Source: Octopus vulgaris
Lineage: Eukaryota
NCBI GenBank assembly: GCA_951406725.2
Contig: OX597833.1
Span: 29,512,001-29,576,000, forward strand
Direction of reading: 5' to 3'
DNA length: 64,000 nt
Positions 8,020-59,643 of this stretch are shown here, piece by piece. Under the pieces are notes generated by a model that worked only from the letters and a program-made list of their open reading frames with translations, made no database searches and was not told where the DNA came from. Within the stretch, counting starts at the first letter, position 1. Every line of letters starts with the position of its first letter. Made by a program: the position numbers and the translations under genes.

Positions 8020-8652
8020 GTTGATGCAAACAGGAAAAATAGAACCCAAAATATGAGTATATTACTCTTTTACTTGTTTCAGCCATGCTGAAGCATCACC
8101 TTTTAGTCGAAGATATCGACCCCAGAATGTATTCTTTGTAAGCTTGGTACTTTTTCTATTGGTTTCTTTTGCTGAACTGTAATGTTATTGGGACATAAAC
8201 ACACCAACATCGGTTGTCAAGCGATGGCGGGTGGGACAAACGCAGTCACTCTATGTGGACTGTATGGGCAGATTTTTGAAATCCAATGAATCTTGATACA
8301 TTTATACAGTTACAAAATTTTACAAATACACTTTCTCAGGGAGATATGAGATACCTATTATAATGGGTAATACTACATGTACTTTTCATATTTTTTATAG
8401 TGTGATGTACCTCTTAGGAATAACAATGTTTGCAGCTGAAGAAAGCTTTAAACCATCTTTTATATCAATTATACACTGATGTAAGAATGGGTTGTTTATA
8501 AAGCTTGAAACACGTGTACCACGATATCCTTTGTGTTCTGTTTTTATTTTATTTTATATATTCTCTCTCACCTCTGCCACTATCTGGCATAGACAGGTGC
8601 TTACACATATGTATATACATATGTTTATATATGTGTATATTTATGTATGTGT

Positions 8653-12774: not shown

Positions 12775-13867
<1,093 letters not shown>

Positions 13868-14059
13868 TTGAGTATAGAAATTCGGGGTGAGTACTTGATA
13901 ATTATAAGCACCTGTGTATACCGTTAGGGGGTGTAGGTGGTGGAGTAAATTGATCAAAATAAAAACATGATGCGAAGGATTCAGCGGTACATATGGAGGA
14001 TTTGCATCCCCAACCAAGAATTTTTGATGTAACACATGTCCTTGTGGAAGCTGTTGTGC

Positions 14060-14137
14060 GCGGCTGAAGAAGGCCACAGACATACATTATGCATTGTTAT
14101 AAATCTGTCTAATAAAGGCCCGAAACATATGTACCGC
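14060..14137 (+). ncRNA. Type I hammerhead ribozyme motif
   Basis: Stem I GCGG/CCGC, core CTGAAGA, stem II (A)GGCC...GGCC(C) extended by ACAGA/TCTGT, GAAA, palindromic stem III ACATATGT, cleavage triplet GUA ending at 14133. Confidence 0.8.
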
Positions 14138-14168
14138 TGAATCCTTCGCATCATGTTTTTATTTTGAT

Positions 14169-14232
<64 letters not shown>

Positions 14233-14235
14233 ACT

Positions 14236-14547
14236 TGGGTATGAATAAGTATTTCATTTATATCTCACGTATGTGCCGCTGAAGAGGGGAAATTTCTTGT
14301 GAATTAACCCCGAAATTGGACCAATACGGTAATAACGAATTTTTTAGAGATTTCTATCGGTTTGTTTCGAGACGCATAAATTTAATGGTTATTGACAATT
14401 TTTTTGTTTTCGGCGTATCTGGCATTAGAATTTTTCTTGTGCCCTTATCTTGTAAATTATGTATAAATTTTACCTTTAAAGGCATTTTTTGATATGCTGG
14501 CCATTGATAACATTTTTTTCCCGAAAAAAATTTTATCCTATATCAAT
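14236..14547 (+). repeat. Direct repeat copy 1 (pseudo-LTR or retrozyme-like)
   Basis: Near-identical to 16277-16591. Begins just after a (TA)n tract and contains an HHR. Confidence 0.9.
14274..14331 (+). ncRNA. Type I hammerhead ribozyme, canonical core
   Basis: Stem I TGCCG/CGGTA, core CTGAAGA, stem II GGGG/CCCC, GAAA, stem III ATTGG-A-CCAAT, cleavage triplet AUA ending at 14326. Confidence 0.88.
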
Positions 14548-14615
14548 TATAAATAGACTAGTGTTCACTTTTGGATTCTATCACTCTGTGAAAGTTTCTT
14601 GTTCGAATCACACGT

Positions 14616-16152
14616 GTTTGCTGTAAGTTGCTGATTGTTTATTGTTGAACGTTTTTGTTATACTGTTTTTGGTTGTTGTCTGTCGGTGGTGAGACAGACA
14701 GTGAGAAAATGGACTGCCCCTCCCTAACGGGAGGGATGGCCAGACAGAGGTTGTTTGAAAGTTTATCAGAATGACGAGTAGGTAGGGAGAGGAGGAGGTA
14801 GACCTGGTCAAGTTGCCGGGCTTTCAGGAATTTATAGAAGGAGAGGGCGGCGAAGCCGAATTGTCGCCACCAACAAGGCGTGGTGAGTGGTTCGATCGCA
14901 GGACCGTCAAGTACTGAGTATATGCAAACGGAAACAAAAGAATGGAAGTAGTCAGCATGGAATTTATTGAAGAAGCGTTGAAAAGAACGGAGGAAGAAAT
15001 TATTTATTTGACAAGAGGCATGGAATTCGGCACGGTGATGGTTCAATTTAGGAGCGAAAACGTAGCAAGAAAAATGGCAGCCAAAGCAGTGAAAGCGGAT
15101 AAGGTATTCCTTCTACCCTCATATTTGAACAGGAAAGCCACTCGAATCAGGGTGGAGGGAGTGCCCCCACATTTGGAAGGCGAATGGATGGCGGCAGCGG
15201 TAATCAAGGGATGTGAAGAAGAGGTGGACATCCTCCATGCTACCATGAAATATGAAGGCTGGAGGGGTGCTACAATAGATATGAACGTGCAAGCGGAGGC
15301 TGAAACGCTGGAAAGGCTAACTGAAAACATAAGAATGGGAAATATCATCATGAGAGTGTGGGTGGAGGGCAGAGCCCCGCGCTGTTACAAGTGTGGCCTG
15401 AGAGGTCACATAAGAGCTAACTGCCCTCCCCCACCAAAGGAAATTGTTATGGAACCCCAAAGAGAGGAAGAGACTAAGGAAGAAGAACGGAATCCAGTGG
15501 AGAAGGAAACAACAAAAGAGGAGGTCCAGAACGAATGGGAAGAAGAAAGGAAAAAAAGAAAGAGAAGAAGGAGAAAATTAAACAGTACTGAACCCCAATC
15601 CACCCCAACACCGCCCACACCCTCTTAATACCATCCTTCCCCTGCAGACAGTGAACCCACCCACTCCCCACCAACAAGAAAACAGAAAAAAGATGCACAC
15701 AGACAAGACACCAAACAGGAACCTAGGCCCAACATTTTATGTATCGCGGGGAGAGAGGACATAAAAGAGATAATAAGTGACTATCAATGGTGTGAGAAAG
15801 AAAGTTGTAGATATGCAGTGGTTCCAAAAGAACAAATAGATGAGCTTAAGGAGGGATGTGAAAATGAAGACTGGGAAATAAGTAAAGTGAAAATAAAGGA
15901 TGAGATAGTGAAGGAATTAGAAGAGAGATTCAAGAGAAAAATAGAGAGCGAAGGGTTTTACATTGGGAATGATATCGGATGTCAAGTCACGAAGGACAGG
16001 TAAGTGATGCTAGCGGAATGGGGCCGTTAGCATCACTTTCATCTATCATTTTCATAATGCATTTACCCATATTTATGTAATTGTGATGTTTTGTGTCCCC
16101 AATGTTTGTACTGTCCATTCTATCTTGCTCTTTATGGGTAATAAAGGAAAAA
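14616..16152 (+). mobile_element. ORF1-only non-LTR retroelement (HAL1-like) flanked by a 39-bp direct duplication
   Basis: TCTATCACTCTGTGAAAGTTTCT(T/A)GTTCGAATCACACGT occurs at 14577-14615 and 16153-16191. The element ends in GGGTAATAAAGGAAAAA, has a single gag-like ORF and no RT. Confidence 0.75.
14942..15628 (+). pseudogene. L1/Tx1 ORF1-like nucleic-acid-binding protein with CCHC zinc knuckle (core of an interrupted ORF of about 14708-16003)
   Basis: TRIRVEGVPP (RRM-like), CYKCGLRGHIRANC (CX2CX4HX4C) and a basic KKRKRRRRK stretch. The same frame continues past TAA 15628 into ORF 15818-16003 and upstream past a TGA near 14915. Confidence 0.75.
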
Positions 16153-16276
16153 TCTATCACTCTGTGAAAGTTTCTAGTTCGAATCACACGTTTCTCGATG
16201 TGCGCCGAAGATTTTTCTATTTTGGATATATTTGGGGTACTTACGTCTGCTCGGGACTTGGTGCTTGCTTCTTCCG

Positions 16277-16587
16277 TGGGTATGAATAAGTATTTCATTT
16301 ATATCTCGCGTATGTGCCGCTGAAGAGGGGAAAATTTCTTGTGAATTAACCCCGAAATTGGACCAATATGGTAATAACAAATTTTTTAGAGATTTCTATC
16401 GGTTTGTTTCAAGACGCATAAATTTAATGGTTATCGACAATTTTTTGTTTTCGGCGTATCTGGCATTAGAATTATTCTTCTGTCCTTATCTTGTAAATTA
16501 TGTATAAATTTTACCTTTAAAGGCATTTTTTGATATGCTGGCCATTGATAAAAAAAATTTTTTCCTAAAAAATTTTTTATCCTATAT

Positions 16588-16591
<4 letters not shown>
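16277..16591 (+). repeat. Direct repeat copy 2 (pseudo-LTR or retrozyme-like)
   Basis: Near-identical to 14236-14547 and runs directly into (TA)n. Confidence 0.9.
16315..16373 (+). ncRNA. Type I hammerhead ribozyme, canonical core (second copy)
   Basis: TGCCG-CTGAAGA-GGGG...CCCC-GAAA-TTGGACCAA-TA-TGGTA, with cleavage after 16368. Stem I is kept by a G-U pair. Confidence 0.85.
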
Positions 16592-16653
<62 letters not shown>

Positions 16654-16658
16654 GTAAC

Positions 16659-17329
16659 AATTTAGGTTAGTTGAAATATGTCACATATTTTGAACTGCAG
16701 TTACTGTGGAGAAAAAAATCTCTCTTATGGTAAAAAGGTTGAAAACACCTAGTTCGTTCAGTTTCGTCATCTCTTGGGAATCTCTTGGGAAACATTGATG
16801 TTTCGAGTTTATTGAATCTCGTCAATGAAATGTTCCTAAGAGAGGCAACCTGAAACGAACTAAATAAAGCATGAAGCTTGATATATAATTCAGTCAACAC
16901 GTTGACTGATCTGTGCTGGGAGATTGCCCAATCGAGATAAATAAGTAAGTAATGGCGCAAGGCAGTGTTTATGCATAATCACAATTTAGGTTTATTATAT
17001 GTAAATACTGCCTTGCGCCATTACTTCGTTATTTATCTCGATCGGTCGATCTCCTAGCACAGATTAGTCAATGTGTTAACTGAATTATATATCAAGCTAC
17101 ATGCTTTATTTAGTTCGTTCCGGGTTGCCTCTCTTAGATACATCTCATCGACAAGAGTCAATAAACTCGAAACATCAATGTTTGAGAACCCCGAGAGATG
17201 GCGACATTGAACGAACTAGGTGTTATCACACCTTTTTATAATAAGAGAGATTTTTCTCCACGGTAACTGCAGTGTATTTGCCTTTAGCACTTGAAATATG
17301 TCACAAACATATTTCAACTAACCTAAATT
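16659..17329. repeat. Fold-back palindrome (arms ~280 bp, centre ~16985) carrying two divergent HHR-like motifs
   Basis: About 16693-16978 is the diverged reverse complement of about 16995-17273. Outer inverted ends AATTTAGGTTAGTTGAAATATGT / ACATATTTCAACTAACCTAAATT. Confidence 0.85.
17143..17187 (+). ncRNA. Type I hammerhead-like motif with variant core UCGACAA
   Basis: Stem I TCTCA/TGAGA, core TCGACAA, stem II GAGT/ACTC, GAAA, stem III ACAT-CA-ATGT, triplet GUU. The mirror copy at 16786-16830(-) has core TTGACGA and a damaged stem I. Confidence 0.6.
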
Positions 17330-57479: not shown

Positions 57480-59643
57480 GAATACCCTTCTTATAATACT
57501 TCTCTGCTGCTGGGATAAAATGATTTAAGAACCAATCTTCAAAAGTAACAACTGTAACCCATACTTTTGAATTAGCCCTCCATATAACAGGGATATCTTG
57601 GGTATGTTCTTCAGGGCATGGACGTTGTGTACATGATACACAAGCAGTGGCTTTAACTTAAAATCTTCTGCACAATTACCTCCCAACATTATAGTCACAC
57701 ATTCTTGTAGCCTGTAATTTTTTTTTCCTCCTTGAAATGAATGAATGATCTGGCAATTTCTTCCAACATAATCCAGGCTCATCTACATTGAATATTTGCT
57801 TGGGAAGAAACCCGTTTTCTTCGATGATCTTCAATGTCGCAGGAAATTCCGCTGCTGCATGTTTGTCAGCTGATGCGATTTCACCTTGTTTCTTCAGGAA
57901 GTGATAACTTCTCAGGTTTTTAAATCTCATATACCATCCTTGACTTGCCTTGAACTCCACATCTATCTCATCTGGACATTTTTTTCTTTGGGTCCTCAAA
58001 CAAAGATAACATTTTCATCTGAACGATTTCTTGACTAAGAGTAACATTCTGACAATTCTGCCCATCATTCCAAATAGATAGAAGACTTTCCATTCCTTCA
58101 AAGATTTTGACTTGTGTTGATGTCAGTGTTCTTCATTACTGAGGTTTCATATGTGATGTGTGTTAAAACCTTGTCCTTATTATGCACAATTTATCCTCCA
58201 ACGTTATAGCATGACGCTTAGCTCCTTCACCAGGATTTTTCTTAGGAGGCATGGGGGGCAAAAATTAAAGTGACAAATGAATGTAAACGAGAGAATCTAA
58301 ACGATAAACAGATGTAAACAAATCTGAATTCAAGATAATCGCGGGAATCACAATGATGTCTAACGGTAGATTTTGGAACTAGTAGTGCAACATGAGCTCC
58401 GAAGACAGATAAAGGATCTTTACCTTTTGACTGGCAGATTTAGAAAATAATTTTTTCTAACTAAACACTTCCAAACTTCGTATACTGGTAGAATGTGTCA
58501 TATAAAACAACTTTTACTCTTAGCGTTTTTGAGAAAACTTTATATTTATGAAGTTATTTCATGTTAAAGTTGTCGTATTTCAGTAATTTCAACCAATCAA
58601 CGACGTGTATTCAGTTGAATAAAATTACTGCTGTTGTTTGTCAACAACTATTGAGGGTGTATTTTTCGTTTGTCACTGTTATTTATGACATCGTTCGTGT
58701 GTTTGTACTGGATTCAGCTTTAAGGTTTTAGGGTTAGTGTTAAGGTTTTAGGGTTAGGGTTAGGATTTTAGGGTTAGGGTTTTAGGGTTAGGTTAGGGTT
58801 TTAGGGTTAGGGTTATGGTTTTAGGGTTATGGTTAGGATTTTAGGGTTAGGGTTAGTGTTTTAGGTTAGGGTTGGGGTTGGGGTTGGGGTTGGGGTTGGG
58901 GTTGGGGTTTTAGAGTTAGAGTTACAGAAAAATTGAAAAATGAAGAAATTGGAGGGGTAGGGGTAGGGGGGCAAAAAAGTCTTTCCGAAAATAGTAGCTG
59001 AAAAACAGAAAAAAACTAAAAGCAGTAGAAATGCACGAACGATTATGATGGTGCCATGAAGTAAACATGCTTCAGATACACTCGTTTATTTATACAAACA
59101 TAACTGAGATGAAATATGTCATAAATAACAGTGACAAACGAAATATACCCCGCCAGAAGTTGTTGTTGACAAACAACAGCAGTAATTTAATTCAGCAGAA
59201 TACACGTCATTGATTGGTTGAAATTACTGAAATATGACAACTTCAACATGAAATAACTTCGTAAATATAAAGTTTTCTCAAAAACACTAAGAGTAAAAGA
59301 TGTTTTATATGACACATTCTACCAGTATATGAAAGTGTTTAGTTAGAAAAAATTATTTTCTAAATCTGCCAGTCAAAAGGTAAAGATCCCTTTATGGTGT
59401 ACATTTTAGCATTTACTGTATTTTAATATGGTTTTTTATGCTTTTATTCTTATTTATTTTAACATGATTTTATGTGCTTTTAATGTTTTTTAGTGTTTTT
59501 ACAATTCCAATATTATTGATGGGCCAACGTAAAGTTGAGTAAAATGACTTAACTTGATTTTTATTTTTCCATATACTATTTTTGAAAACTAACATACCTT
59601 TGAGAACAACTTAAATTGTAATGACTTAAGCCAAGGTATCCCT
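57480..59643 (-). mobile_element. pogo/Tigger transposon relic interrupted by a long-TIR element
   Basis: ATG at 58252 gives MPPKKNPGEGAKRHAITLEDKL. Further motifs are FKASQGWYMRFK, QIFNVDEPGLCWKKLP and GGNCAEDFKLKPLLVYH. A Tigger-like end TA|CAGGGATACCTTG lies at 59643. Confidence 0.8.
58414..59390. mobile_element. Non-autonomous element with ~275-bp TIRs and internal telomere-like repeats
   Basis: 58414-58691 is the reverse complement of 59116-59389 (GGATCTTTACCTTTTGACTGGCAGATTTAG ends). The interior 58719-58923 holds TTAGGG/TTTTAGGG/TTGGGG arrays. Confidence 0.85.

Follow-up and report, generated by a model that had tools for sequence, protein, structure and literature searches.

The composite at positions 14236 to 16591 of the stretch of Octopus vulgaris DNA analysed here (the window: 64,000 nucleotides of contig OX597833.1, assembly GCA_951406725.2, forward strand) is best explained by two successive events, in which a non-coding Penelope-type unit came to lie in (TA)n and an ORF1-only LINE then likely retrotransposed into the predicted transcription start of that unit, 29 nt below its TATA box. 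We assign this reading a probability of about 0.7. Since full-length relatives of the LINE lie mostly about 30 bases below TATA-like boxes, the family likely aims at start sites and so borrows the promoters of other elements; by analogy with known position-specific retrotransposons, a LINE family that inserts at predicted RNA polymerase II (Pol II) start sites is probable.

The layout described in the initial annotation can be recovered from the sequence (Table 1). Two direct repeats of about 312 bp, at 14236-14547 and 16277-16591, are present and 94% identical, a type I hammerhead core with its three stems (I-III) occurs in each, the predicted cleavage sites after 14326 and 16368 are 2042 nt apart, and (TA)n is found at both flanks of the composite. 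The monomer of 466 nt that had been estimated for the empty unit agrees with its natural head-to-tail spacing, which is about 462-470 nt. The 39-bp duplication (14577-14615 and 16153-16191) is real, with the qualification that part of it is probably the insert's own 5' end.

Table 1. Features of the composite and its flanks (window coordinates)
Positions	Strand	Feature	Basis
14171..14233	.	(TA)n, left flank	
14236..14547	+	upstream copy of the hammerhead unit, 5'-truncated (segment R), stopping at the 3' end that is fixed in the family	repeat and homology comparison
14275..14331	+	hammerhead 1 (type I), expected to cut after 14326; stem III palindromic, activity likely in dimeric form (predicted)	motif scan, covariation
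14548..14555	+	TATA box of the unit, matching TATAWAWR at every position; the duplication begins 29 nt downstream	sequence
14577..14615	+	39-bp duplication, 5' copy: target site duplication (TSD, probably about 20-28 bp) plus target-like 5' end of the insert; begins at the predicted transcription start	
14616..16152	+	ORF1-only (HAL1-like) non-autonomous LINE: 5' UTR, ORF1, 3' UTR, tail common to an autonomous APE-RT LINE	
14710..16003	+	broken ORF1: tandem RRM, CCHC knuckle near 15380-15427, charged linker, C-terminal domain	
16140..16145	+	AATAAA in the LINE tail, upstream of hammerhead 2	
16153..16191	+	39-bp duplication, 3' copy, running on into the empty unit	
16153..16591	+	remainder of the unit (U3 + R) after the insert, as far as the fixed 3' end; in the host tree the empty copy L032 is its sister	
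16317..16373	+	hammerhead 2 (type I), expected to cut after 16368, stem I closed by G-U	
16590..16653	.	(TA)n, right flank	

Several other features of the window deserve mention in their own right. A third type I hammerhead, on the same strand and with cleavage predicted after 14133, belongs to another element at 13866-14172; this element has an internal inverted repeat of 47-50 nt, lies in (TA)n and has a copy of 96-97% identity in locus L030. Two further hammerhead-like motif matches are located on the + strand at 8537 and 31415, and a degenerate interstitial TTAGGG array at 58720-58924. The inverted repeat at 16790-17183, with 190-nt arms that are 88% complementary and a 14-nt spacer, is probably a MITE-like or fold-back element, and Rfam miRNA matches to it are far under the gathering scores.

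The empty unit represents an abundant family. A search with 16153-16591 returned 2650 candidates, the best of the 40 that were scored being 93-96% identical, and the exact ribozyme-core pattern gave 970 matches, compared with 0 for a control pattern. In 29 fetched loci, a sample biased to copies matching the full query, homology stops at one 3' point and is followed by TA-rich sequence; 22 of these 29 loci join one unit to the next head to tail with no intervening ORF, and 14 carry an inverted 5' arm starting at R225-233. Two full units are present in L054 and also in L162. The LINE insert is absent from all 59 unit loci sampled, and at only two of them was there a PLE-protein match, a weak one, within 1.5 kb of the unit. 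Empty units also possess a motif between the TATA box and the insertion site, presumably ETS-like, which is mutated in the window copy (14566-14574).

This organization combines the hallmark of non-LTR retrozymes, one type I hammerhead per non-coding tandem unit, with those of non-autonomous Penelope-like elements (PLEs), namely the partial tandem, the fixed 3' end with a tail, the inverted 5'-truncated arm and the AT-rich targets. The repeats of an autonomous pseudo-LTR (pLTR) flank an ORF for RT and GIY-YIG, and the insert in the window has no RT coding. The possibility that the unit is a mere pLTR of an RT-coding element is ruled out by the 22 of 29 loci in which unit is joined to unit without an ORF; the empty unit is thus non-coding, tandem, hammerhead-bearing and Penelope-type, as initially supposed, and not solely attached to RT-encoding PLEs. 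From its two fixed ends, AT-rich targets and non-coding tandem structure, we classify it as a non-autonomous Penelope-type element of the retrozyme kind, following published descriptions (PMC11167929; PMC7229834; bioRxiv 10.64898/2026.07.22.740005). It is an additional family within an already known class. The two fixed ends and the AT-rich targets agree with the two internal RT starts shown for a Poseidon PLE (PMC11167929), and the unit would likewise be copied by a putative Penelope-like RT from two internal start points and be inserted into (TA)n as a partial tandem. The excerpt available of the octopus repeat annotation (PMC13282606) lists L1-Tx1 and Penelope families, and the word 'ribozyme' is absent from it.

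Both ribozyme cores fit the pattern CUGANGA / GAAA / NUH with stems I-III in a motif scan, AUA being the cleavage triplet. The expected match to the Rfam hammerhead model did not materialize, neither at gathering scores nor at E<=10, and the single-strand MFE folds of the two repeats differ from the hammerhead (z -0.41 and 0.49). Support for the fold derives from covariation across subfamilies: in 20 natural copies belonging to several subfamilies, 98.2% of 280 cells are paired and four of the 14 stem pairs have changed on both sides, with changes in all three stems, although the relatedness of the copies inflates these counts. The segment of stem III alone forms no hairpin, and its self-duplex has a predicted energy of -8.9 kcal/mol; to judge from the palindromic stem III, the hammerhead likely works as a dimer, which fits the dimer model of animal hammerheads (PMC4209133).

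The insert has a separate history. In a search with 14616-16152 the unit was missing at 27 of the 30 best loci, so that the fallback interpretation of the initial annotation, a nested insertion, proved right: the ORF belongs to an independent LINE family. Its copies display duplicated ends at unrelated sites, 5' truncations and a common tail, which has 197 exact matches, and open frames of 441-454 aa are preserved in L004, L005 and L011. The zinc knuckle that had been noticed in the ORF is recognized by Pfam zf-CCHC (E 0.00086, 19.7 bits, slightly below the cut-off of 20.8), and it ends an N-terminal region whose structural model (pLDDT 65.9) matches tandem RRM proteins with a best E of 1.3e-4 and low TM-scores. 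A protein search with an intact ORF1 gave no match at E<=0.001, and in a PDB sequence search the knuckle alone was matched (best E 0.002). The insert shares its tail with L136, a LINE with the domain order APE-RT-zf-RVT (domain search), whose ORF1 is 43% identical over 155 aa (E 2e-41) and which we take, from motif resemblance, to be Tx1-like. The insert thus has a single ORF homologous to a LINE ORF1 and no ORF2, together with its own TSDs, 5' truncation and shared tail, and on these grounds we regard it as an ORF1-only non-autonomous LINE like HAL1 (PMC5753468). Its interpretation as a retroviral gag or as Penelope cargo is ruled out by the domains of L136, the ORF1 homology and the tandem RRM fold. 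ORF1-only LINEs as such are already known.

The autonomous LINE in L136 (G000:C3:31894000-31902500) is flanked by a long duplication, the sequence of which has a hammerhead-like motif in L189; its target appears to be TATA-less and has motifs that are presumably GC-box-like and E-box-like. The window copy of the ORF1-only element is dead, with a 76-nt deletion and frameshift near 14767, stops at 14915-14917 and 15626-15628, and a longest Met-started stretch of 228 aa (14942-15628). At the level of the family, trees of the N- and C-terminal parts of ORF1 are discordant across L002, L003, L069, L092 and free copies, pointing to frequent swapping of sequence modules among subfamilies. Many copies are arranged in head-to-tail arrays, often of mixed subfamilies, including one in which 17 tail matches follow each other every 1.7 kb or so (G000:C5:100952971-100980419) and another with five at the same approximate spacing, whose units keep a 456-aa open frame (G000:C2:158832409-158839159). 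The 5' ends of subfamilies resemble the first bases of other targets.

The position of the insert relative to the TATA box was evaluated by scoring TATAWAWR with at most one mismatch, starting 34-27 nt before the duplication. In the first round, which was post hoc and left out same-target, tandem and internally deleted copies (seven short loci were skipped), nine of 16 distinct full-length targets had such a box, compared with 25/349 (hand-summed, about 7%) in 22 other windows serving as controls. Truncated copies had it in only 4/26 cases (Fisher p 0.008 against the full-length ones). With the rule fixed beforehand, held-out loci gave 2/4 and then 5/6, the latter with 4/72 control windows; the held-out total of 7/10 against 7% corresponds to about 1e-6 (binomial, by hand), a value to be read with sampling by similarity and the relatedness of some targets in mind. 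The round with 2/4 left out targets already counted, tandem copies, loci whose duplication fell within family sequence and loci without a tail or a clear duplication; that with 5/6 left out L251 (a match, same promoter as L216), L301 (a miss, the flank being the tail of another LINE), L266 (a match) and L269 (a miss), both of the latter with a score of 10, as well as L279, tandem loci and loci without a 3' end. Adding L251, L301, L266 and L269 changes the second held-out round to 7/10.

Over all rounds, 16 of 26 distinct full-length targets lie 27-34 nt below a TATA-like box and the remaining 10 show no motif at one mismatch or less, figures that apply to loci chosen by similarity to few queries; several of the targets are host elements related to one another (B, F, L216), and the start of a duplication can be placed only to within a few bases. 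The enrichment is limited to one 8-nt window, all scored boxes are in sense with the element, and there is no visible common sequence at the nick; one target, in the integrase-bearing element at L097, follows an integrase gene. The insertions of full-length copies are position-specific in that a core-promoter element recurs at one distance and in one orientation from them, in targets that are unrelated (16/26, with 4/26 for truncated copies). Targets are not Pol III genes: they are TATA-bearing repeats, and no Rfam family was found in the window. Random insertion followed by selection of expressed copies was also considered and rejected, because the many full-length copies at random sites that it requires were not seen.

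The unit family has been struck repeatedly at one position. Five loci are filled at one site of the unit, within 3 nt (site A): the window, C16 (L002), C9 (L003), C25 (L069) and C4 (L092). In neither ORF1 segment do their inserts form one clade (p-AU 6e-53 with 37 rows and 5e-54 with 30 rows), and well-supported branches force at least three and at least five changes in the two segment trees. A single ancestral composite is thereby ruled out. The host tells the same story: in a tree of 27 rows, from which the diverged subfamily of L069 and L092 is missing as it fell below the length filter, the window unit pairs with the empty L032 and the filled arm of L003 with its own empty arm, the inverted arms of L003 and L092 are empty, and both duplication copies track the host subfamily. 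Over the N-terminal ORF, the inserts in the window, L002 and L003 agree at 92-95% and could, on this basis, go back to one event; this and the mosaic nature of the family set the number of independent events at three to five, a count blurred by recombination, as the discordance of the ORF1 trees indicates. The initial annotation had allowed that junctions unique to this locus would denote a chance insertion, and the result is a third one, as the junctions do recur, at five loci, by independent insertions.

Exact sites are reused in targets A, B and C. Target C is the pLTR of a GIY-YIG-coding PLE, with a hammerhead 181 nt downstream. A further reused site is in a hammerhead element within a hairpin-ending repeat, which is presumably Helitron-like. 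In target D the insertion points are scattered over about 45 nt. No general preference for hammerhead units emerged, a strict hammerhead being present within 500 nt of only 3/85 tail ends. Six dispersed loci (L018, L019, L021, L022, L023 and L026) hold copies of one composite in which an ORF1-only insert lies just upstream of another hammerhead in a hairpin-ending repeat, and this composite seems, from its sequence, to have spread as a unit.

The initial annotation proposed a ribozyme-bracketed ORF cassette that read-through would release as an RNA of about 2 kb, possibly circular. In its full form this rival would make the composite a propagating element, its ORF1 RNA being freed by the two hammerheads and copied by Penelope machinery. 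Two intact hammerheads do bracket the insert both in the window and at L092 (2169 nt apart), junctions are common to the window, L002 and L003, which are also 92-95% identical apart from the linker and C-terminal part of the ORF, and animal retrozymes are described as yielding circles of 170-400 nt (PMC7229834). This scenario is nevertheless very improbable and the cassette was not upheld, as the ORF comes from an independent LINE and is broken in the window, the site-A inserts are not one clade, the inverted arms of L003 and L092 and all 59 sampled unit loci are empty, stem III has no hairpin of its own (only the -8.9 kcal/mol self-duplex), and PLE insertion in vitro did not need hammerhead cleavage (PMC11167929). 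Moreover, with the TATA box below hammerhead 1 and the AATAAA (16140) above hammerhead 2, both cleaved ends should be missing from the transcript; to give a 2042-nt RNA, transcription would have to enter from outside and run on beyond the poly(A) signal, and a 2-kb circle carrying the ORF is unlikely.

Two other explanations address the start-site position itself. The reverse transcriptase of the host element might reach the 5' end of the host RNA, i.e. the start site, jump to the 3' end of the LINE RNA and later jump back, with no targeting by a LINE endonuclease. Such template jumping predicts start-site junctions, full-length inserts only and target-like 5' ends, and many of the identified targets are indeed retroelements (the PLE at target C, the integrase-bearing element at L097); we consider it unlikely, however, because duplications are much alike whether the site is a full-length one (mostly 13-25 bp) or a random truncated one (mostly 12-19 bp), several host classes would each need a homology-free jump back, and serial arrays of different subfamilies at one site fit repeated insertion. 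Slightly less likely still is a set of several sequence-specific Tx1-type partners, each directed at an AT-rich repeat of its own in the way that Tx1-Mar is directed at Mariner-N4, the TATA spacing then being incidental or due to open chromatin. Tx1 families that prefer other transposons are on record (PMC4494074) and the recurrent exact sites A, B and C would suit them, but no visible motif is common to the targets at the nick, one subfamily enters several targets while one target receives several subfamilies, and the enrichment is confined to one 8-nt window.

Under the preferred reading, insertion directed by the promoter, the LINE particle would be tethered to TBP/TFIID, probably via the ORF1 protein, and the template strand would be nicked near +1, so that the LINE is inserted in sense and comes under the host promoter. 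The site would be regenerated in the process and later arrivals would build head-to-tail arrays, the 5' ends of subfamilies would be remnants of earlier targets, and the hammerhead bracket around the window LINE would be a by-product. A precedent is offered by TRE5-A: in vitro, TBP is bound by its ORF1, and a derivative that lacks ORF2, TRE5-A.2, exists (PMC5391098). Truncated copies with the same tail lack clear TATA enrichment (4/26), which is unaccounted for by simple endonuclease tethering. The most general form of the proposal, to which we give even odds, is that ORF1 brings the LINE family and its ORF1-only satellite to the Pol II preinitiation complex, where they dock, insert in sense at the starts of TATA promoters and hijack the promoters of Penelope elements, retrozymes, LTR elements and each other, hammerhead hosts repeatedly yielding ribozyme-bracketed ORF cassettes. 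If true, it would explain the persistence of a promoterless element, and ORF1-only elements would keep their ORF because ORF1 would carry the address; insertions would pinpoint, to the base, promoters that are active in the germline, and the family would amount to a natural system for integration directed to start sites. Position-specific insertion at Pol III genes is established for TRE5-A and Ty3; in the openly searchable literature we found no LINE positioned on Pol II TATA promoters or start sites.

Each component of the composite has known counterparts. Like animal non-LTR retrozymes and non-autonomous PLEs (PMC7229834; bioRxiv 10.64898/2026.07.22.740005), the unit is non-coding and tandem, has one type I hammerhead and hundreds of dispersed copies, and its length is inside the reported range of 51-972 bp; unlike animal retrozymes, its copies are mostly of 1-2.5 units with fixed ends and inverted 5' arms, and some have a nested LINE. 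With the tailed pLTRs of PLEs (PMC11167929; PMC4209133) it shares partial tandems, two fixed ends about 80 nt apart, (TA)n targets and a palindromic stem III suited to a dimer, whereas no RT or GIY-YIG ORF is present between its repeats. The insert resembles HAL1 (PMC5753468) and TRE5-A.2 (PMC5391098) in having ORF1 only, LINE-type duplications and tail, 5'-truncated copies and an autonomous partner with a homologous ORF1 and the same tail, but its ORF1 comprises a tandem RRM and a CCHC knuckle, and it appears to be promoterless, with 5' ends probably taken from earlier targets.

As regards the choice of target, Dictyostelium TRE5-A (PMC5391098) and yeast Ty3 (PMC6673722) are likewise described as keeping a fixed distance and orientation to a core promoter with no common target sequence, and as forming tandems at reused sites. 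These two act at Pol III genes, whereas in the octopus the reference point is a TATA box some 30 nt upstream, as is typical of Pol II promoters, and insertion occurs in an animal, at the predicted start and in sense, with truncated copies not clearly targeted; the contact with TBP is a feature of TRE5-A and is extended to the ORF1 of the octopus LINE by analogy (PMC5391098). Tx1-Mar and other transposon-preferring Tx1 families (PMC4494074) are also LINEs repeatedly nested in mobile elements and possibly transcribed from them, but they are described as preferring one target family, whereas the octopus LINEs have at least 26 distinct targets, united by promoter geometry.
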